This document shows positions 5,970 to 61,910 of a stretch of 64,000 nucleotides of DNA, piece after piece. Each line of letters begins with the position of its first letter. Within the stretch, counting starts at the first letter, position 1. The DNA comes from an uncultured Bacteroidales bacterium. Lineage in GTDB: Bacteria; Bacteroidota; Bacteroidia; Bacteroidales; Paludibacteraceae. The notes beneath the pieces are model-generated. The model saw only the letters and a program-made list of their open reading frames with translations, searched no databases and had not been told where the DNA came from. The stretch covers positions 31,063 to 95,062 of the forward strand of contig CAIUTB010000003.1 in NCBI GenBank assembly GCA_903901975.1. The letters are read 5' to 3'. A program made the position numbers and the translations under genes.

Positions 5970-6004
5970 AACCGACCCCGTCGTTTAAAGCGACGGGGTC
6001 GGTT
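5970..6004 (-). terminator. intrinsic terminator downstream of the acyl-CoA ligase gene
   Basis: AACCGACCCCGTCG-tttaaag-CGACGGGGTCGGTT is followed on the minus strand by GTTTTTT. It lies 13 nt after the stop at 6017. Confidence 0.8.
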
Positions 6005-6016
6005 AATGTATTTTTA

Positions 6017-13963: not shown

Positions 13964-14842
13964 TTATTCTTCACGCCAACGTTTGGTCAAATCACCAAAA
14001 CTGTCAATCCGGCGGTCACGGAAAAAAGGCCACATACGCCGAACTGTTTCGCTTCTGTTGAGATCAATTTCAATAATAATATTTTCTTCTTTATCGTTTG
14101 ATGCTTCAACGATAATCTCGCTCTGTGGTCCGACTACGAAACTGTTTCCCCAGAATTGAATGCCATTAGTTACGCCGGATGGATCAGCTTCATAGCCAAT
14201 TCGATTGCAGGTAATAACGTGAAGCCCGTTAGCCACGGCATGACCTCGTTGAACGGTTATCCATGCTTCATTTTGCCTTTGTTTTTCGTCATCTGAATCC
14301 GTGCTTTCCCATCCAATAGCCGTTGGGTAAATCAATATTTCAGCTCCGGCCATCGCCATTAAACGGGCTGCTTCAGGATACCATTGATCCCAACAAACCA
14401 ATACGCCGAGTTTTCCTACCGAAGTCTGAATCGGTTCAAAACCCAAATCTCCGGGAGTAAAATAGAATTTTTCGTAATAAGCCGGATCATCCGGAATGTG
14501 CATTTTGCGGTATTTCCCGGCAATAGTTCCATCTTTTTCAATTACTACTGCGGTATTGTGATACAAGCCTACAGCACGTTTTTCGAATAACGAAAGCACC
14601 AACACAATACCTAATTCTTTCGCCATTTTCCCAAATTTCTCAGTTGAAGTACCGGGAATAGTTTCGGCTTGTTCAAAAACAGTTGGATCTTCAGTCTGAC
14701 AGAAATATAAACCATTATGAAGTTCCTGTAAAACAATTAATTCAGCTCCTTTTGCAGCACACGAACGAATGTTTAGCTCCAGTTTAGCCAAGTTTTCAGT
14801 ATGATTGGCAGTGTTGGATTGTTGGATTAATGCTATTTTCAT
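13964..14842 (-). CDS. aguB: N-carbamoylputrescine amidase (nitrilase superfamily)
   Basis: 292 aa. It has the carbon-nitrogen hydrolase catalytic context LQELH, GKYRK.HIPD and VCWDQWYPE, and it lies next to agmatine deiminase. Confidence 0.9.
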   Translation of the reverse strand: MKIALIQQSNTANHTENLAKLELNIRSCAAKGAELIVLQELHNGLYFCQTEDPTVFEQAETIPGTSTEKFGKMAKELGIVLVLSLFEKRAVGLYHNTAVVIEKDGTIAGKYRKMHIPDDPAYYEKFYFTPGDLGFEPIQTSVGKLGVLVCWDQWYPEAARLMAMAGAEILIYPTAIGWESTDSDDEKQRQNEAWITVQRGHAVANGLHVITCNRIGYEADPSGVTNGIQFWGNSFVVGPQSEIIVEASNDKEENIIIEIDLNRSETVRRMWPFFRDRRIDSFGDLTKRWREE

Positions 14843-14948
14843 GACCCCTCCTGGCCTCCCCTAAAGGGGCGGAATTAAGTTAGTATTGTTTTAAATTTCA
14901 GTGTAAATTATATATTAAACCTCTTTTTCCCCTTTAGGGGCTAGGGGC
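14843..14948. repeat. MITE/Correia-like inverted-repeat element, copy A (aguA-aguB spacer)
   Basis: The left arm contains CCCCTAAAGGGG (14858-14869). The right arm is CCCCTTTAGGGGCTAGGGGC (14929-14948), whose reverse complement is identical over 20/20 nt to the left end of copy C. The interior is AT-rich. Confidence 0.8.
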
Positions 14949-24781: not shown

Positions 24782-25433
24782 ATCAACAGTAAGCAGTAAG
24801 CAAGCAGTAAGCAGTGATAGAAAATCAGTTTGTTTGACTTCGGCTTATTTAGCTCCGGTAGAATATTATATAGCATTAGCGAATGCTGAAACAGTATATT
24901 TGGAGCAATTTGATTTTTACGAAAAGCAAACTTATCGGAATCGTTGTAATATATTGAGTGCAAATGCTGTCATTGCATTGACAATTCCTGTGGAAAAACC
25001 TTCCGGCGAAAAAATTCTGATATGCGATGTCCGGATTTCGGAACATAATGATTGGCAAATCCAACATTGGCGGTCAATAGAATCGGCTTATAATTCAACT
25101 CCTTTTTTTGAGTATTACAAGGATGATTTTCTTCCGTTTTATGAGAAAAAATGGGATTTTCTATGGGATTTTAATTTTGAACTTCAGTCTAAGGTGCTGG
25201 AATTGTTGGATTTACAACCAAGGATAGAATTTACTGAAAACTATCAGGCAATTTTGAATGAAGGAATGATTGATTTACGAGAAAGTATTCATCCGAAAAA
25301 GATAACTCAAACCGAGAATATGAAATCGTATTATCAGGTTTTTGAACAACGATTTGGTTTTCAGAAAAATCTGAGCATAATAGACTTACTTTTTAATATG
25401 GGGAACGAAAGTCAATTAATTGTTGGCCCCTAA
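24768..25433 (+). CDS. WbqC-like family protein
   Basis: The core ...TSAYLAPVEYY...EKQTYRNRC.I...IPV... matches the WbqC family. The start is uncertain. The ATG at 24768 overlaps lepB by 14 nt, the first roughly 20 codons run through a CAGTAAG heptad repeat, and an in-frame TTG near 24831 is an alternative. The stop codon lies in repeat copy B. Confidence 0.7.
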   Translation: MQKSKSTVSSKQAVSSDRKSVCLTSAYLAPVEYYIALANAETVYLEQFDFYEKQTYRNRCNILSANAVIALTIPVEKPSGEKILICDVRISEHNDWQIQHWRSIESAYNSTPFFEYYKDDFLPFYEKKWDFLWDFNFELQSKVLELLDLQPRIEFTENYQAILNEGMIDLRESIHPKKITQTENMKSYYQVFEQRFGFQKNLSIIDLLFNMGNESQLIVGP

Positions 25434-25549
25434 TTAACTCCCTTTGGTCGTTGACCATTGGTGTCCCCTGAAGGGGACATTAAAAGTTAGTTTCTTATAA
25501 TTTCAAACATATAATTTAATTTAATTCCCCCTTTAGGGGGTTAAGGGGC
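25426..25549. repeat. MITE/Correia-like inverted-repeat element, copy B (wbqC-ilvE spacer)
   Basis: The outer left motif GCCCCTAA (25426-25433) is separated from the inner palindrome CCCCTGAAGGGG (25465-25476). The right arm is CCCCCTTTAGGGGGTTAAGGGGC (25527-25549). The interior resembles copy A (ATTAA(A)AGTTAGT..AATTTCA). Confidence 0.75.
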
Positions 25550-28802: not shown

Positions 28803-29276
28803 ATGTCAACATTTATAGGAAAATATGAAGCAAAAGCCGATGTAAAAGGAAGAATCTTTATTCCTTCCAATTACCGTAAGTTACTGCCCAATGATGAAAA
28901 AGAACGGGTAGTGATGCGTAAGGATGCCGAAAACGACTGTTTGATTATCTATCCCGAACATGTGTGGAACGAAATGGTTGGTGATTTTAAATCGAAGTTG
29001 GATGAGTGGAATCCTACCGACCAGTTATTGTTGATGCAATTTGTATCCGATGCAGATTGGCTTGATATTGATTCTCAGGGTCGTATTTTGATTTCCAGGA
29101 AAAACCTGCAACTCATTGGAATTGAAAATGCTGAAGTGTTATTTGTCGGAATGTTAGATAAGTTTGCGGTTTGGAGCAAAAGCAGGTATGAACAAAATAA
29201 ATTGTCCTCAACTGATTTTGCTGCTCTTCTAAAAGAGCGAATGATGAAGAAGCCCCTAGCCCCTAAAGGGGAATAA
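28803..29276 (+). CDS. mraZ: division/cell-wall cluster transcriptional regulator MraZ
   Basis: 157 aa with two SpoVT/AbrB-like halves carrying DxxGR motifs (VKGRIFIP, SQGRILIS). It is the first gene of the dcw cluster. The last 8 codons and the stop lie in repeat copy C. Confidence 0.95.
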   Translation: MSTFIGKYEAKADVKGRIFIPSNYRKLLPNDEKERVVMRKDAENDCLIIYPEHVWNEMVGDFKSKLDEWNPTDQLLLMQFVSDADWLDIDSQGRILISRKNLQLIGIENAEVLFVGMLDKFAVWSKSRYEQNKLSSTDFAALLKERMMKKPLAPKGE

Positions 29277-29388
29277 GAACCCCTAATCCCTAAAGGGGGA
29301 TTAAAAGGATTCATTAATTGTAAAATTGAGAATGAAAAAAAATATAACAAACGTAGGTAATTCAGTTCCCCTTCAGGGGTTAGGGGTC
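29252..29388. repeat. MITE/Correia-like inverted-repeat element, copy C (mraZ-rsmH spacer), with duplicated left terminus
   Basis: Left termini are GCCCCTAGCCCCTAAAGGGGA (29252-29272) and CCCCTAATCCCTAAAGGGGGA (29280-29300). The right terminus is TCCCCTTCAGGGGTTAGGGGTC (29367-29388). The interior is AT-rich. Confidence 0.85.
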
Positions 29389-30288
29389 TATCACACTCCT
29401 GCACTGCTGAATGAAACTATTGACGGACTCAATATAAAGCCAGATGGGATTTATGTGGATGTCACTTTTGGCGGTGGCGGTCATTCGAAGGAAATTTTGA
29501 ATAAACTTGGACCGAAAGGCAAATTGCTTGGTTTTGACCAGGATGAAGATGCAGTAAAGAATATTGTTGAAGACTCCCGGTTTATATTTGTTCAGAGCAA
29601 TTTTTTGTATCTAAAAAATTTTCTCCGTTATCACAATATTGAAAAGGTCGACGGTATTTTGGCGGATTTGGGCGTTTCGTCTCACCATTTTGATGTGGCT
29701 GAACGTGGATTTTCGTTTCGATATGATGGAGCACTTGATATGCGTATGAATACTAAATCGCCTCTGACTGCTGCGGTTTTATTGAATACTTATTCTGAAG
29801 AACAATTGGCTGATGTGTTTTATTTGTATGGCGAATTACATAATTCCAGAAAAATAGCCCGAACCATTGTCATTGCTCGTTCCAACGCACTTTTCGATCG
29901 AATTTTTCCTTTTATCGAAGTGTTGAAGCCATTTTTCGGTCGTGAAAAGGAAAAGAAAGATATGGCGCGGGTATTTCAAGCCTTACGCATTGAAGTGAAT
30001 AAGGAAATGAATGTGCTGAAATCACTCTTGTCGCAAAGTCTTGAAGTGCTCCAACCCGGAGGAAGATTGGTGGTTTTGACTTATCATTCGTTGGAAGATA
30101 GATTGGTAAAGAATTTTTTTCGCAGTGGAAACTTCGAAGGTAAATTGGAAAAAGATTTTTACGGCAATATATTATCGCCTATGAAAGCGATTAATAATAA
30201 AGTGATTGTGGCCGACGAGGCGGAAATTGCACGTAATCCGAGAGCAAGAAGTGCCAAACTTCGTATTGCCGAATTGAAGGTTGGTTGA
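29332..30288 (+). CDS. rsmH: 16S rRNA (cytosine1402-N4)-methyltransferase
   Basis: It has YHTPALLNE (the canonical YH.PVL start region), the SAM motif DVTFGGGGHS and the DLGVSS.. motif. The only in-frame ATG upstream of the conserved core is at 29332, inside repeat copy C. The TTG at 29326 is an alternative. Confidence 0.88.
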   Translation: MKKNITNVGNSVPLQGLGVYHTPALLNETIDGLNIKPDGIYVDVTFGGGGHSKEILNKLGPKGKLLGFDQDEDAVKNIVEDSRFIFVQSNFLYLKNFLRYHNIEKVDGILADLGVSSHHFDVAERGFSFRYDGALDMRMNTKSPLTAAVLLNTYSEEQLADVFYLYGELHNSRKIARTIVIARSNALFDRIFPFIEVLKPFFGREKEKKDMARVFQALRIEVNKEMNVLKSLLSQSLEVLQPGGRLVVLTYHSLEDRLVKNFFRSGNFEGKLEKDFYGNILSPMKAINNKVIVADEAEIARNPRARSAKLRIAELKVG

Positions 30289-30343
30289 TTGGGTTGAATG
30301 GTTGATTAAGTAATTGGAAATTGAAAAATTGATAATTGAATAA

Positions 30344-39344: not shown

Positions 39345-39416
39345 TAATTTCCAATTTCAACCAATGGATAATTGATTGAAAATAATTGCTAATTGAAAAT
39401 TGGAAATTGAATAAAA

Positions 39417-53691: not shown

Positions 53692-53703
53692 GTTCTAAGC
53701 CAA

Positions 53704-53736
53704 ATCGACCCCGTCGCTTCGAGCGACGGGGTCGAT
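53704..53736. repeat. GC-rich hairpin sharing its stem with the terminator at 5970-6004
   Basis: ATCGACCCCGTCGC-ttcga-GCGACGGGGTCGAT has the core CGACCCCGTCG / CGACGGGGTCG, identical to the core at 5973-5983 / 5991-6001. Confidence 0.65.
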
Positions 53737-53757
53737 AAAAGATATAAGATAAGATCT

Positions 53758-57898: not shown

Positions 57899-57939
57899 TG
57901 ATAGAGTTTTTCAATTGGTAAATGATAATTGGAAATTGA

Positions 57940-60900
57940 TTAATTGATAATGTTTTTCTTTTCCCTTTCATTGATTGCATTCAACCGTTCAGATATAAGT
58001 GTTTGAATCTCATCAACGGGTTTGTAATTTTTCTGCAGACTGAGCAGATATTGTTTGGCCTGAAAATCGTTATTCAGTTTGATATACATATCGGCAAGCA
58101 GTACAAAACTTCGCGCCAGCCAAAATTGATGTGGTGTGTTTTTCTTTGCAAATTCCATTACCGCCTTTTCTACATCGGTCATTTTTCCCTGATCAAAATA
58201 TAGGTTTGCCAGCAGGTAATTGGCTTCAGCACCAGTAGCCAATCGGGTATCAGCCGAAAGTATTTTCAAATCAACCATGGCTTCAGAATATTGATTCAGA
58301 GCCAGATAAGCTTTGGAACGGTTATAAAGAGCTTCTGTTTTCAGTTCATCACCGGAATGCGGATCGGCAGCAATTTCGTTAGCAATTTTCACGGTGGTTT
58401 GATAATCGTTCAGTAAAAAGCAGCAACGTAAAATTCCCAAACGACTGATATTTTTATTATCGGCATATTGTGCTACTGTTTCCAATTGTTTGTAATAAGT
58501 CAGTGCTGAAGCATAATCTTTGCGGTCGTAGGTAATTTCGGAACATCGCAAAGCTGCTTCTTCAGTATATTGATTTCCGTTTATCTTGAGTGCTTCCTGA
58601 TAAGCTTTCAACGCATTCACCTTGTCTTCGGTTACATAATAACTTTCGGCCAGATAGTATTGAGCCATACCCGCATATCGTGCATCCTGACCAAACTGAT
58701 TCAGGTAAGTCTGCAATCCGCTTATGGCTTTTGGATAATTCGCATTCATGTATTGATGCTCGGCAGCGATGTATGAGATTGAATCTTCTGTGCCCGATTT
58801 CGTTCCCATGCCCAGCGTTTTGATATAAGTCATATATTTTGAGACTTCATTGTTTTCGATTGAAACCGTTTGCAGGCTTTCGAGAGCTGTGTTAGCTTCT
58901 TCCGTACCCGGATAGTTGGCTATCACATTTTTATAAGCTGCAATTGCATGGTCGTAGTTTTTGTCGTTGAAATAAATCATACCGATTTCCAGAGCTGCTT
59001 TGCGGGCTAAATCAGCGCCTGGTTTCAGTTCGAGTAAACGTTGATACGTTGCAATGGCTTTCGCATTATTTTCGAGCATCAGCCAGGCTCGCCCAATTTC
59101 ATAAAGCGCATTATCTACATATCCCGAGCTTGGAAACTGACTTATCAGACTTTCCAGTTTGCTTATTTTGAATTCATAATTTTTCTGTAATCCCGTCACA
59201 TAAGCAGCCTGAAACAAGGAATAATCAGCTGAGGCAGGGCTAGTCGATGCCGCTTTGCTGTAAAATGTCTGTGCTTTGCCAAAATTGCGGTTATTAAAAT
59301 AACAATCACCAATGCGGTTCATCGCGTCGGGATAACTTGTGGCCTTCATATTGTTTTCGCCGTCAATATATTTCAAAAACCAGTTGAGTGATTCGCTGTA
59401 GTTTTTCTTTGAAAAATAGGAATAAGCCATCAAGTAATTGGCCATAACCTGATTCGCACTCGAGTTCAGGTTGCTGTTATTGAAAAATGTTTTCAAATCG
59501 CCTATAGCCTGCTCAGGTTGGTTTATGCGATACTTACTTTCGGCACGCCAGTACAGACATTCAGCTGAATACTTTCCGGCAGGAGCAAATTCCAACGCCA
59601 GCGTAAAACGACTGATGGCTTTTTCAAAATTATTCTGAACAAAAGCTTCCGTACCTAATTGATATAGAATGTATTGTTTGGTTTCAAGGAATGCAGCACT
59701 GGCCGATTTAATTTTCTGAACGGACTGATAGGCAACTTCATAGTTTTTGGTAGTCAGATAAACGGTTGACAAATAATCGAAAGCTTTTTCGGCGTGTTTC
59801 GAATTCGGAAATTCATTCAGAAACTGTTCAAAAGCCGAAATGGACTCACCAAAAGCCGAAGTTGATTCGTAGCAAGTCAATGCGTAATTAAACAGAGCTT
59901 CTTCCCGAACGGATGTATTGAAATTACTTATCAGTGAAGCTTCAAAAGCCAGTTTGGCATTTGCAAAATCTTTTAGTTTAAGGCATGCATTTCCCAAATG
60001 CATATAGGCATTCTCGGTCATTTCATCTTTTTCATTCGTAGCCTTCGACAAGTACTGAACAGCATTGCTGTAATTTTTGGTTTGAAAATACGATAATCCC
60101 AATAAATACATATCGTTTCGAAGTACTTGTGAGAATAGTTTTTCATAACTTTTCAGGTAACTGATCGCTTTTTCATAATTCTGTTTTCGGTAGGCAATTT
60201 CGCCGGCAATGCGGTATATTTCAGCATTATTCTTATTCTCCGGATTGTTTTTAAGCAGAATATCTGCGCGGTCATTCAGTTTTTCATAGTCCTTTTGCGC
60301 ATAATAAATCTGCACTATGTAATAAGCAACGATGGTTTTATACTGTGGATTGTTTTCAAGTTTTAGAAACTCCGCCAAAGCTGCAGTATAATTTTTCAGA
60401 CAATATTCCGAGTAAGCAAAATAATAAGCTGATGAAAACTTGTATGCAGTATCCTGTTCCTTCAAATTTTTATAGATGGTCGAAGCAGTGGAGTAATTTT
60501 TCGTTTGAATGGCAGCATAAGCCTTTGAAAACAAACATTCTGTCTGACTATTTTGTCCCAAATGAGTTGTATTCACCTGATTAAAATATTGCATGGCGAG
60601 TACGAAGTTTTTAGTATCCGCTACCATCCGTCCGAGCCGGTAATTTACTTCATCCGCAAAAACTGTATTCGGGTATTTTGTCAAAAACACTTTCAACAGA
60701 TTAGCAGCATTCTGTTGATGCAATTCATAAGCATTAGCAGCAAAATAAAATTCAGCTTCTTCTAACTGACCGGCCTGTTCTATCTCAGCATTTTTTAAGA
60801 ATTCAACAAAACAAGGATACGAAGCAGCAAATTTGCCCTGAGCAAAAAGCTCTTTTCCTTTGATAAACTGTGCATCGGGATGTGTAAACACCTGACCATG

Positions 60901-60963
60901 TTGAGCAAAACCAGTGACCAAACATGTGATAAACAGCAGGTTTATAATTATTATTTTTCTCAT
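57940..60963 (-). CDS. large secreted tetratricopeptide-repeat protein
   Basis: 1007 aa. A signal peptide is followed by many 34-residue TPR-like units (A..Y..A....NY..A...Y). Confidence 0.85.
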   Translation of the reverse strand: MRKIIIINLLFITCLVTGFAQHGQVFTHPDAQFIKGKELFAQGKFAASYPCFVEFLKNAEIEQAGQLEEAEFYFAANAYELHQQNAANLLKVFLTKYPNTVFADEVNYRLGRMVADTKNFVLAMQYFNQVNTTHLGQNSQTECLFSKAYAAIQTKNYSTASTIYKNLKEQDTAYKFSSAYYFAYSEYCLKNYTAALAEFLKLENNPQYKTIVAYYIVQIYYAQKDYEKLNDRADILLKNNPENKNNAEIYRIAGEIAYRKQNYEKAISYLKSYEKLFSQVLRNDMYLLGLSYFQTKNYSNAVQYLSKATNEKDEMTENAYMHLGNACLKLKDFANAKLAFEASLISNFNTSVREEALFNYALTCYESTSAFGESISAFEQFLNEFPNSKHAEKAFDYLSTVYLTTKNYEVAYQSVQKIKSASAAFLETKQYILYQLGTEAFVQNNFEKAISRFTLALEFAPAGKYSAECLYWRAESKYRINQPEQAIGDLKTFFNNSNLNSSANQVMANYLMAYSYFSKKNYSESLNWFLKYIDGENNMKATSYPDAMNRIGDCYFNNRNFGKAQTFYSKAASTSPASADYSLFQAAYVTGLQKNYEFKISKLESLISQFPSSGYVDNALYEIGRAWLMLENNAKAIATYQRLLELKPGADLARKAALEIGMIYFNDKNYDHAIAAYKNVIANYPGTEEANTALESLQTVSIENNEVSKYMTYIKTLGMGTKSGTEDSISYIAAEHQYMNANYPKAISGLQTYLNQFGQDARYAGMAQYYLAESYYVTEDKVNALKAYQEALKINGNQYTEEAALRCSEITYDRKDYASALTYYKQLETVAQYADNKNISRLGILRCCFLLNDYQTTVKIANEIAADPHSGDELKTEALYNRSKAYLALNQYSEAMVDLKILSADTRLATGAEANYLLANLYFDQGKMTDVEKAVMEFAKKNTPHQFWLARSFVLLADMYIKLNNDFQAKQYLLSLQKNYKPVDEIQTLISERLNAINEREKKNIIN

Positions 60964-60982: not shown

Positions 60983-61086
60983 GCCCCTAAATCCCCTAAA
61001 GGGGACTTTGAGAATACTTTTGATTTTAATATTTTCGTTGATTAGACACCATAATACTTGTCATTCCCCTTTAGAGGTTAGTGGTC
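60983..61086. repeat. MITE/Correia-like inverted-repeat element, copy D (nudix-TPR spacer)
   Basis: The left terminus is GCCCCTAAATCCCCTAAAGGGGA (60983-61005). The right terminus is the degenerate TCCCCTTTAGAGGTTAGTGGTC (61065-61086). The interior is AT-rich. Confidence 0.8.
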
Positions 61087-61636: not shown

Positions 61637-61677
61637 CTATTTTTTAGTTTAGAGTTCAACGGTTAGGTTGGCATTTT

Positions 61678-61910
61678 GGTTGAATGGGTTGATTAAGTTG
61701 AATTAAGTTGACTGGGTTGAATAAGTTGAATAAGTTTATTGAGTTGAATGGGTTGATTAGGGTTATTAGGTAAAAGGCAAATTTGTTGGAACATTTTTGA
61801 CTTGAATAATTTTCACGCAAAGAACATAACTATAATAACCCAGTAACCTTAATGAACTTATTCAACTTATTCAACCTAGTCAACTAAATCAACCCAATCA
61901 ACTCAATAAC
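61678..61910. repeat. large imperfect palindrome built from GTTGAWTRR words
   Basis: Positions 61707-61740 and 61851-61884 are reverse complements with 32/34 matches. Pairing extends outward to about 61678 and 61910 with one 10-nt bulge. About 12 direct word units lie on the left and about 9 inverted units on the right. Confidence 0.8.

Follow-up and report, generated by a model that had tools for sequence, protein, structure and literature searches.

What are the short repeats with inverted ends that recur at gene junctions of this 64-kb window (the whole stretch of DNA analysed here), and what could have spread them? Small palindromic repeats are a long-standing puzzle, and to our knowledge an enzyme is known only for the REP-RAYT pair. 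A sequence-only reading had listed four MITE/Correia-like sites, and all four were present in the window, part of a Paludibacter sp. metagenome contig, at the coordinates listed below. We found exactly four elements of 104-137 bp, with nine termini of the form RCCCCTA(A/G)-CCCCT(A/G)AAGGGG-A, where chance would yield none. The sequence CCCCTNAAGGGG occurred 7 times in the window versus 0 in 100 dinucleotide-preserving shuffles, and at <=2 mismatches it gave 16 strand-hits versus 2.2 expected. Scanning with nhmmer, using a profile HMM built from 22 Paludibacter-type termini, recovered nine termini that made up the four copies (2+2+3+2), with no other match in the window at E<=10. The copies, their termini and the coding signals they touch are arranged as follows.

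14843..14948, minus strand: copy A, separating the minus-strand genes aguA (PAD_porph) and aguB (CN_hydrolase).
14927..14948, minus strand: copy A upstream terminus, GCCCCTAGCCCCTAAAGGGGAA (nhmmer E 7.6e-07).
14934-14936, minus strand: aguA stop TAA, which is the hairpin loop of the copy A upstream terminus; the protein ends ..KAPSP*.
14843..14871, minus strand: copy A downstream terminus, a degenerate one that reads CCCCTTTAGGGGAGGCCAGGAGGGGTC in transcribed-strand letters (nhmmer E 0.0011).
14840-14842, minus strand: aguB ATG, immediately adjoining the copy A downstream terminus.
25426..25549, plus strand: copy B, between wbqC and an ilvE-like aminotransferase gene.
25426..25476, plus strand: copy B left terminus, comprising the outer tag GCCCCTAA, an insert of ~30 nt with its own small hairpin, and then the inner hairpin.
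25465-25476, plus strand: copy B inner hairpin CCCCTGAAGGGG, within the left terminus.
25431-25433, plus strand: wbqC stop TAA, provided by the copy B outer tag.
25526..25549, plus strand: copy B right terminus, TTCCCCCTTTAGGGGGTTAAGGGGC, 6 nt ahead of the ilvE ATG (25556).
29252..29388, plus strand: copy C, the copy flagged initially, separating mraZ from rsmH where the dcw cluster begins.
29252..29276, plus strand: copy C left terminus 1, GCCCCTAGCCCCTAAAGGGGAATAA (nhmmer E 4.4e-07).
29274-29276, plus strand: mraZ stop; left terminus 1 encodes the last residues of MraZ and its stop, ..KKPLAPKGE*.
29279..29306, plus strand: copy C left terminus 2, the tandem duplicate, ACCCCTAATCCCTAAAGGGGGATTAAAA (nhmmer E 3e-06).
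29332..29388, plus strand: rsmH start ATG (29332) and the open frame leaving through the right terminus, inside copy C.
29366-29388, plus strand: copy C right terminus, GTTCCCCTTCAGGGGTTAGGGGTC, read through by the rsmH frame.
60983..61086, minus strand: copy D, between a NUDIX gene and a TPR gene, both on the minus strand.
61064..61086, minus strand: copy D upstream terminus, also degenerate, reading GACCACTAACCTCTAAAGGGGAA in transcribed-strand letters (nhmmer E 1.5e-05).
61061-61063, minus strand: NUDIX stop TGA, after the copy D upstream terminus, which encodes the C-terminus ..RPLTSKGE.
60983..61005, minus strand: copy D downstream terminus, GCCCCTAAATCCCCTAAAGGGGA in plus-strand letters (nhmmer E 1.3e-05).
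60961-60963, minus strand: ATG of the TPR gene, 19 nt past the copy D downstream terminus.

Each end consists of a conserved tag (R-CCCC(C)-TA-R) beside a small G+C hairpin (CCCC-TRAA-GGGG). Several termini are degenerate versions of the form that had been proposed: in copy A the promoter-distal one reads GACCCCTCCTGGCCT-CCCCTAAAGGGG, and one terminus of copy D carries CCTCTAAAGGGG/GTGG. Copy B has ~30 nt inserted between outer tag and hairpin. The 20-mer that copy C has in common with copy A read in reverse complement was confirmed and stretches to a 29-nt match at 97%, and the left terminus of copy C is indeed duplicated in tandem (29253-29279 versus 29280-29306, 81% identical). The 12-bp palindrome attributed to each terminus did not hold up, as CCCCTAAAGGGG is imperfect (its reverse complement is CCCCTTTAGGGG) and folds as a 4-5 bp stem with a 2-4 nt loop. 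Conservation is confined to ~25-40 nt at each end; the interiors barely align (mean column identity 54%). End-to-end folding, suggested earlier as a possibility, was supported by predicted RNA MFE z-scores of -1.9 to -6.9 for the window copies. The termini are inverted and 22-27 nt long, like the terminal inverted repeats of MITEs; the elements lie within the MITE size range (<~300 bp) and have no transposase coding capacity, only a leader ATG. They equally present two REP-like units inverted as a doublet, as REPINs do.

Pfam bore out the names given to the flanking genes (PAD_porph (agmatine deiminase)>CN_hydrolase, WbqC>class IV aminotransferase, MraZ>RsmH and NUDIX>TPR), and all four pairs are co-directional, with the elements inside operons. 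The copies had been described as intergenic; they do lie at gene junctions, but they are not purely intergenic and overlap coding ends. The stop codons of aguA, wbqC, mraZ and the NUDIX gene fall inside or directly after a terminus, and copy C provides the RsmH start codon together with ~19 N-terminal residues, an extension (MKKNITNVGNSVPLQGLGV) that precedes the conserved YHTPALL. The left terminus carries stop codons in all three frames and the A-rich interior holds an ATG whose frame exits through the right terminus, so the element can replace a stop-spacer-start junction with both genes intact, and such a replacement was seen at mraZ-rsmH. Copies were always found at stop/start junctions of co-directional genes. 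Judged at the sequence level, they are coding-compatible stop/restart spacers.

Searching beyond the window, we found the terminus pattern in at least 120 loci of species-representative genomes and in at least 120 loci of viral contigs. Under a uniform-composition model, ~100 chance matches of the 18-base pattern are expected in 596 Gb, so the raw hit count is no evidence; the evidence is the taxonomic skew, with ~113 of the 120 matches listed for species representatives belonging to named Bacteroidota of many orders, and the paired architecture, with an inverted partner 11-180 nt away for about half of the termini. The termini are near-identical across orders. The small elements with inverted ends do form a multi-copy family, as proposed, with many further copies elsewhere; it extends through the phylum and is not peculiar to one genome. 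Other hairpins following the tag (CCGTCAGCTGACGG in loci L105a, L005b and L004) were considered as evidence of structure recognition and set aside as rare.

Empty sites of the kind envisaged by the sequence-only reading were found in related Paludibacter genomes, which showed insertion polymorphism at the same operon junctions in both directions. At mraZ-rsmH, L124 lacks an element and the window and L126 carry one, and the wbqC-ilvE junction is empty in the Paludibacter MAG L127, with a 21-nt spacer; conversely, L128 and L129 are filled where the window is empty (CoA-binding gene/dapB and murD/ftsW). Among 120 close RsmH homologues, ~40 keep the short ancestral N-terminus M(I/T)EP(I/A)-YH, and in ~80 the N-terminus is lengthened by residues that stem from a terminus (..NSVPLQGLGV-YH or ..NSPLGVGG..-YH), with decay in some cases. 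Between the window and L126, orthologous copies have conserved termini and drifting interiors. No clean insertion junction appeared in the filled/empty pairs, where the element fills the whole stop-to-start spacer. Target-site duplications, a further feature that had been put forward, were absent from the flanks of 17 complete copies, where the bases beside the ends are complementary, not repeated, and they were also absent from the filled/empty pairs, which come from diverged genomes. No recent transposition was caught among copies, the interiors of which have diverged. That the elements may be mobile rests on presence and absence between diverged genomes.

An enzyme candidate first surfaced in a search for termini pairs 0.3-4 kb apart. 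Longer units, ~0.45-0.7 kb in length and with these termini at their ends, contain the gene of a DUF559 (Vsr-like PD-(D/E)xK) endonuclease of ~120 aa that matches Pfam PF04480 at E 1e-35, and at motif-selected loci every DUF559 ORF found adjoins a terminus (L025, L039, L055, L102; L027 is partial). For an independent test, we picked 80 metagenome loci by DUF559 peptide patterns only, 75 of which had both flanks. A left-type terminus lay upstream in 38/75 and a right-type terminus downstream in 35/75; both matched termini were present in 28/75 and at least one side in 45/75, leaving about 40% of loci with no terminus by regex. The background terminus density of 0.088 per kb (both strands) corresponds to about 1% per flank by chance, and distant control ORFs had a terminus in 0/9 cases. 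Left and right termini of one unit co-vary (e.g. CCCCCTGTCCCCC...GGGGGACAGGGGG). These results showed that the association of DUF559 with the termini is specific.

Two architectures were recognised, L-ORF-R in Chitinophagia/Sphingobacteriia and [L..R]-ORF-[L..R] in Paludibacter. Within the Paludibacter lineage the units occupy three different operon junctions (L282/L330, L333 and L335), and ~100/120 Paludibacter-type DUF559 homologues bear the same terminus-derived N-terminal peptides as the window RsmH. Comparison of L282 with L330 showed the DUF559 gene conserved at about the rate of its neighbours, as if vertically inherited, and an identical protein on 24 contigs occurred in a single genomic context only, so this sample gave no sign of recent mobility of the unit. 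The RND-ABC junction of L330 was considered as an empty site for the L335 unit and dropped, as the adaptor proteins differ at their C-termini and may not be orthologues. Across 28 diverse members the catalytic E-x-D-G-x-x-H residues never vary, and the closest solved structure is 3HRL (E 4.5e-16). The clade also holds Vsr and the homing endonuclease I-Bth0305I (3R3P) (PMC3424549), and the long relatives of the window elements thereby carry an ORF of a homing-endonuclease fold (PF04480, 3HRL, clade in common with 3R3P); the window has no such ORF, and neither tblastn nor regex detected a DUF559 gene in its 64 kb. DUF559 also lies at conserved housekeeping junctions, for example hisA-hisF in 5/87 loci. 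Public sources mislabel DUF559 ORFs as 'cyclase/HisF' or 'leucyl-tRNA synthetase'.

The statement that the window contains no transposase was corroborated for Y1-type genes, by tblastn and regex. A Y1/HUH-like (RAYT) ORF was likewise not found in 2.38 Mb of element-bearing loci by tblastn and HUH/Y-motif regex, a search of low sensitivity; its tblastn queries were E. coli RAYT and IS608 TnpA sequences, and the result is weak evidence against a RAYT. No cognate IS or transposase with matching ends, as had been suggested, was detected in the loci scanned: wherever two termini lay 0.3-4 kb from each other, the ORFs between them were DUF559, TrpG or unrelated. Nor did a name emerge, in keeping with the earlier failure to recognise a family. 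Rfam gave 0 window matches at gathering score, a permissive scan of L105 gave only sub-threshold generic long-hairpin matches (plant miRNA-precursor hairpins and WsnRNA46), and in the searchable literature the motif strings occurred only in irrelevant papers. Literature searches on DUF559 found nothing on repeats or mobility, and those on Vsr-like homing endonucleases with inverted repeats found no match.

Strict REPINs would be REP doublets mobilised on single-stranded DNA by a single-copy RAYT/TnpA-REP located elsewhere, probably of Bacteroidetes subclass 2.6, with DUF559 a bystander or a secondary invader of REP clusters. TnpA-REP genes of that subclass are mostly from Bacteroidetes and are flanked by atypical structures without GTAG, and their REP feet, (G)CT[AG]G in Table S1, share their tetranucleotide with the CTAG/CTAA before the hairpin here (Quentin et al. 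2018). A hairpin with a conserved foot tag, inverted doublets, missing target-site duplications, intergenic position and long persistence agree with this origin as well. We nevertheless judged it unlikely: the Table S1 REPs were rejected as a source family since none resembles the motif, no listed subclass 2.6 REP resembling CCCCTAAAGGGG; the low-sensitivity scan of 2.38 Mb gave no Y1/HUH-like ORF against DUF559 five times beside termini; and REP families are normally species- or genus-specific, unlike termini that barely change between orders. Still less probable are classical MITEs, internally deleted IS copies moved by the DDE transposase of that IS, as Correia/NEMIS are in Neisseria. Such an origin would suit elements that are small and ORF-less, carry terminal inverted repeats, sit inside operons and fold end to end, and in a census the MITE clusters of Bacteroidota numbered tens of thousands, some common to phages (PMC11602168), just as the termini here extend to viral contigs. 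Yet the 17 complete copies show no target-site duplication, the long termini pairs enclose only DUF559, TrpG or unrelated ORFs, and interiors differ between copies; Correia-like membership, with neither duplication nor matching-end IS or transposase, was not supported.

Host-selected operon punctuation would need no dedicated mobilising enzyme active today: structured RNA/DNA modules, arising by local duplication or recombination and kept by selection, would stabilise or process polycistronic mRNA or tune downstream translation. The confinement of copies to co-directional stop/start junctions, the stop codons and start codon they give, the stable predicted hairpins, and the persistence of copies over species-level divergence, with termini kept while interiors drift between the window and L126, agree with this account. 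Many relatives, however, thrive without an element at the same junction, right termini decay once within coding sequence, viral contigs and different orders have these termini in common, Rfam has no matching family, and the tight DUF559 association is left unexplained, which makes this account improbable.

The window copies may well be ORF-less members of a Bacteroidota-wide, nuclease-associated, REPIN/MITE-like selfish element with DUF559 as mobiliser, a reading to which we give about as much credence as doubt. The longer, DUF559-bearing and transposase-less relatives hint at an undescribed spreading route for such DNA. We infer both the mobilising role of DUF559 and the manner in which a new copy arises. 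With its inverted ends, the 100-150-nt element can form a single long hairpin when it is RNA or single-stranded DNA; the nuclease, encoded by one resident copy or a few and acting in trans, would recognise the structured or palindromic termini and cut, and host repair or recombination would then copy the elements, much as with RAYT and REPINs or with a homing endonuclease and its target. Copies surviving in tight operons would be those built as a stop/restart spacer. We know of no strand-transfer activity in a 120-aa nuclease, which counts against mobilisation by DUF559. Given the two architectures, the ORF may just as well be an independent homing gene with the repeats as its target, rather than a gene that belongs to them. 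More tentatively, and with doubt outweighing confidence, we propose a phylum-wide selfish DNA with a ~120-aa Vsr-like DUF559 endonuclease as its sole gene and no DDE, HUH, serine or tyrosine recombinase, in which the nuclease would act on REP-like hairpin termini and maintain many ORF-less derivatives that insert at operon junctions as stop/restart spacers.

DUF559 (PF04480) is a very small nuclease of an orphan family with thousands of members. Its statistical tie to an abundant unnamed repeat family over much of Bacteroidota, in gut-relevant and environmental lineages and their viruses, makes its role, and whether a nuclease alone sustains a repeat population, directly testable; if the more tentative reading is true, this would be a first function for DUF559 and a second partnership of the REPIN-RAYT kind, with an unrelated enzyme at its core. 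For annotation, the termini add predictable peptides to housekeeping proteins (..PL(A/T)(P/S)KGE* at the C-terminus, MK..NSVPLQGLGV.. or ..NSPLGVGG.. at the N-terminus), shift start and stop codons in Bacteroidota and cause misnaming of DUF559 ORFs. For gene expression, the mraZ-rsmH element stands at the head of the cell-division (dcw) operon.

Compared with known systems, the elements resemble REP/REPIN-RAYT in the short hairpin with a conserved foot tag, the inverted pairs in ~100-nt doublets that fold as long hairpins, the lack of target-site duplication, the many ORF-less copies beside few gene-bearing loci, and a gene itself flanked by repeats ('REPtron'-like). They differ in that the gene encodes a DUF559 PD-(D/E)xK endonuclease, not an HUH/Y1 transposase, that the tag is CCCCTA(A/G) (CTAG/CTAA at the foot) rather than the GT(A/G)G that marks the 5' foot of a REP, a 20-40-nt imperfect palindrome, that the stem is only 4-5 bp, and that near-identical termini span whole orders instead of being lineage-specific. 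Correia/NEMIS and other MITEs (ERIC, RUP, Nezha) are also 100-150 bp long with terminal inverted repeats, lie within operons and are co-transcribed, are predicted to form long RNA hairpins and show insertion polymorphism between strains, whereas here neither a TA nor any other target duplication was observed, nor a parent IS or transposase, and the interior is not conserved. Vsr-like homing endonuclease genes (I-Bth0305I, PDB 3R3P; the 'fractured genes' family, PMC2677866) share a small same-clade PD-(D/E)xK ORF at conserved housekeeping junctions; the DUF559 units, in contrast, lie outside any intron or intein, are bounded by inverted hairpin termini, and have a large ORF-less derivative population at unrelated sites with no cognate empty target defined. 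Finally, Rickettsia palindromic elements (RPE) and enterobacterial RU/ERIC-type in-frame repeats are likewise palindromic repeats translated into protein, as in the element-derived ..PLAPKGE* or ..PLTSKGE* at C-termini and ..NSVPLQGLGV.. or ..NSPLGVGG.. at N-termini, but the elements described here replace gene boundaries (stop, spacer, start) instead of interiors, and bring their own stop and start codons.

Re-examination of the 64-kb window bore out the repeat family described by a sequence-only reading: all four short elements were present, and the genes named around them were correct, as follows.

Copy A, 14843-14948, between aguA and aguB
Copy B, 25426-25549, between wbqC and an ilvE-like gene
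Copy C, 29252-29388, between mraZ and rsmH
Copy D, 60983-61086, between a NUDIX gene and a TPR gene

CCCCTNAAGGGG occurred seven times in the window versus 0 in 100 shuffles. A profile HMM trained on 22 Paludibacter-type termini recovered nine termini, exactly those of copies A-D with three in copy C, and found none beyond these in the window at E<=10. Each terminus comprises a tag, R-CCCC-TA-(A/G), then 0-3 nt, a hairpin, CCCC-T(A/G)AA-GGGG, and A-A/C; the left (L) and right (R) termini are mutually inverted and bound elements of 104-137 nt, whose AT-rich interiors can barely be aligned between copies. Predicted end-to-end RNA folds had minimum free energies of -30 to -57 kcal/mol (z-scores for the four elements: -1.9, -4.5, -6.9, -3.5), and searching the window against Rfam gave no family match. 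That the repeat family is real is virtually certain. The contig belongs to a Paludibacter from freshwater metagenomes (JGI 3300009502 and ENA BUCK21), and RsmH homologues were labelled "MAG: Paludibacter sp.".

The window also holds other repeats. Two copies, 84% alike, of a 37-nt G+C-rich perfect hairpin, AACCGACCCCGTCGTTTAAAGCGACGGGGTCGGTTAA (5970-6006 and 53703-53739), one amid co-directional and the other amid convergent genes, may represent either a terminator or another REP-type family. Upstream of the NUDIX gene, a dense array of GTTGAATGGGTTGATTAAGTTGAAT-type repeats with a 9-nt period (61665-61910) contains a 53-nt inverted pair (arms 61702-61754 and 61837-61889, 87% complementary), and a 34-mer resembling this array follows rsmH (30278-30311). 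TAATTGGAAATTGA(A/T)(A/T)AATTGATAAT-like repeats sit in short spacers within operons, at rsmH-ftsL (30311-30336), at murG-murC (39383-39414) and ahead of the TPR gene (57913-57951), and might serve as a common promoter or translation-leader motif.

The elements have a coding-compatible stop/restart anatomy. The upstream stop codon lies inside the element at all four window copies: AguA ends ..KAPSP-TAA with its stop in the hairpin loop of copy A, the WbqC stop is the TAA of GCCCCTAA in copy B, and copies C and D encode the C-termini of MraZ (..KKPLAPKGE-TAA) and the NUDIX protein (..RPLTSKGE-TGA). All three reading frames meet a stop in the left terminus. Downstream, the aguB ATG directly abuts copy A, and the next ATG is 6 nt from copy B and 19 nt from copy D. 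The rsmH gene is called from ATG 29332 within copy C, its product beginning MKKNITNVGNSVPLQGLGV-YH, and no start codon lies between the right terminus of this copy and YHTPALL, the conserved RsmH motif.

Of 120 RsmH proteins closely related to that of the window (81-100% identity), about 40 begin with a short N-terminus, M(I/T)EP(I/A)-YH, which is typical of RsmH in other Bacteroidales, and about 80 carry extensions, some visibly decayed, that are translated right termini (..NSVPLQGLGV or ..NSPLGVGG..). One related locus (L124) is empty at mraZ-rsmH, with mraZ ending ..RMMKK-TAG, a 39-nt spacer and ATG ATC GAG CCA ATT TAT CAT; the copies there in the window and L126 have diverged, their termini being much better conserved than their interiors. 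The wbqC-ilvE junction of L127 has no element, and elements occupy the CoA-binding gene/dapB junction in L128 and the murD/ftsW junction in L129, where the window has plain spacers of 42 and 29 nt. Occupancy at these four junctions thus differs in both directions between related genomes, and this polymorphism indicates that the elements quite probably are, or were, mobile. At all filled sites the element spans the stop codon to a few nucleotides before the ATG, and the native spacer is unrecognisable. No target duplication was seen in filled sites or filled/empty pairs among the window, L124 and L126-L129; because these genomes have diverged, insertion chemistry is unreadable from the pairs. 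In L128 (Paludibacter MAG GCA_047600405.1; 17710-18935 and 4583-5249), ftsW is called in three pieces and wbqC is absent from its usual place, which could reflect assembly error or pseudogenisation.

The family, with its REP-like termini, is phylum-wide. CCCCTA-N1-3-CCCCTRAAGGGG matched at least 120 loci in a species-representative genome collection (596 Gb), and about 113 of the 120 matches listed were named Bacteroidota (Paludibacter, Prolixibacteraceae, Mucilaginibacter, Pedobacter, Chitinophagaceae, Saprospiraceae, Spirosoma, Larkinella, Dyadobacter, Flavobacteriaceae and others). By our own estimate about 100 chance matches are possible in 596 Gb, so the case rests on taxonomic skew and architecture: among the matches listed, about half of the termini had an inverted partner 11-182 nt away. 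Three terminus subtypes were distinguished, namely RCCCCTAAATCCCCTRAAGGGGACTT, a five-C form and the Paludibacter form; 57-60 of 62 copies retained the last four bases of RCCCCTAAATCCCCTRAAGGGGACTT, although these lay outside the query pattern. Four consecutive spacers of a sugar-catabolic operon in Paludibacter sp. ELA132 are each filled by an element in a single orientation, with conserved subterminal sequences GGGGAATTATGCAAGTA... and ...ACTAACTTAGTTCCCC. Viral contigs carried the same terminus pattern at at least 120 loci.

Rarely overall, the CCCC-TAAA-GGGG hairpin is swapped for CCGTCAGCTGACGG or CCGCCAGCTGGCGG with the outer tag CTAGGGGTTCT retained (Paludibacter loci L105 470-500, L005 7340-7370 and L004 7920-7950). 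Tandem 22-nt units, GGGGTACCCCTAGACCCCTGAA, in viral contig IMGVR_UViG_3300034102_003873 (L155 5700-5800) match the terminus pattern four times running and are probably a different, possibly coding, repeat. In Mucilaginibacter and a related MAG (L106 2811-3604 and L116), a five-C right terminus has given a TrpG-like gene extra N-terminal sequence, MTDNIDIQAHSPFRGPGG-ILIIDNYDSF.., which shows that start-codon donation by the element occurs outside Paludibacter as well.

A nuclease gene, DUF559 (Pfam PF04480, E 1e-35), surfaced through widely separated termini and then through the motif FRRQHP..Y..DF in motif-selected loci, where every DUF559 ORF adjoins a terminus. The units are arranged as follows.

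L055 (Sediminibacterium): TAG of the upstream gene, CCCCCTAGCCCCCTGAAGGGGG, about 50 nt, DUF559 ORF, CCCCCTTTAGGGGGCAGGGGGG, AAC, ATG of the next gene
L282 and L330 (Paludibacter lineage): unit at the SpoIID gene/BT1 transporter junction
L333 (Paludibacter lineage): unit at the trpB/trpE junction
L335 (Paludibacter lineage): unit at the RND adaptor/ABC ATPase junction

As an independent test, 80 metagenome loci were selected by the peptides [YF][IV][VAL]DFYCH and [YV]KFRRQHP with the DNA motif ignored. In the 75 with both flanks, 38 had a left-type terminus no more than 220 nt upstream and 35 had a right-type one no more than 140 nt downstream; both were present in 28 and either in 45. Elsewhere in these loci the same regex gave 0.088 matches per kb (both strands), or about 1% per flank, and none of 9 distant control ORFs had a match. 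The two ends of a single unit co-vary, and terminus-derived tails (..NNPL, ..IPPLGG, ..SPFRGQGG) occur on about one-third of 120 Chitinophagia-type homologues. The association is strong and specific, and we are highly confident that it is real. DUF559 was present in 5 of the 120 motif-selected genome loci listed, copies lacking the ORF greatly outnumbering those bearing it. Five of 87 DUF559 loci (L039, L252, L253, L259, L265; Sphingobacteriia/Chitinophagia) lie at hisA-hisF, where the downstream HisF reads ..SPLRGGGG-LSKRIIPCLD; the JGI names "cyclase" or "HisF" borne by many DUF559 proteins probably stem from this position. A DUF559 protein of P. propionicigenes is entered as "leucyl-tRNA synthetase".

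In Paludibacter the ORF has a complete short element on each side, giving the order [L..leader ATG..R]-ATG DUF559 stop-[L remnant..leader..R]-next gene. Each side thereby carries a direct copy of the "leader + R" half, of about 70-80 nt (e.g. ATGAATCAACAAGAAAATATAGAAAAC...; L330 4884-5500, L333 2760-3600), the copies being similar within a locus and different between the two loci; they might represent a long target duplication or the product of gene conversion between neighbouring copies. The L330 protein is identical to a P. propionicigenes WB4 entry, and the upstream element of L282 shares the duplicated left terminus and CCCCTTCAGGGGTTAGGGGTC right terminus of copy C. Called N-terminal extensions (..NSPLGVRG.. 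or ..NSVPLQGLGV..) in about 100 of 120 Paludibacter-type homologues, and C-tails (..PLTPKGE or ..TPNP) in about 35, are the same peptides that window elements give RsmH, MraZ and the NUDIX protein.

Among solved structures, the DUF559 protein is closest to 3HRL (E 4.5e-16), described as an "endonuclease-like protein", and 28 of 28 diverse members share the E-x-D-G-x-x-H positions without variation. VSR, DUF559 and DUF2726 form a single PD-(D/E)xK clade with 1CW0 (Vsr), 3HRL and 3R3P, the last a group I intron homing endonuclease (Steczkiewicz et al. 2012, PMC3424549). Our literature search on DUF559 found no published link to repeats or mobility. The nuclease, acting in trans, might drive or maintain the repeats; that it is the mobilising enzyme is a tentative proposal, to which we give somewhat less than even weight. 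It could be the elements' own gene, with short copies as deletion derivatives, or a homing-type gene resident in a palindromic context supplied by the repeats; L-ORF-R and R-ORF-L units are alike centred within an inverted pair, and both variants fit the data.

A possible, though unlikely, reading as REPINs with a Y1 transposase (RAYT) partner would fit the CTAG/CTAA foot, which resembles CT[AG]G, the foot of subclass 2.6 REPs in Bacteroidetes (Quentin et al. 2018); however, none of the published REPs (Table S1 therein) resembles these termini, and a low-sensitivity search (regex, and tblastn with E. coli RAYT and IS608 TnpA) saw no Y1 gene in 2.38 Mb of element-bearing loci. Derivation of the short copies from a parent IS, as DDE-type MITEs, is very unlikely: 17 complete copies showed no target duplication, and no parent IS emerged between termini 0.3-4 kb apart. 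The original description of the elements as MITE-like and unnamed is supported in part. Among known systems, the family is best filed with elements of the REPIN/MITE kind, having a DUF559 nuclease as its partner.
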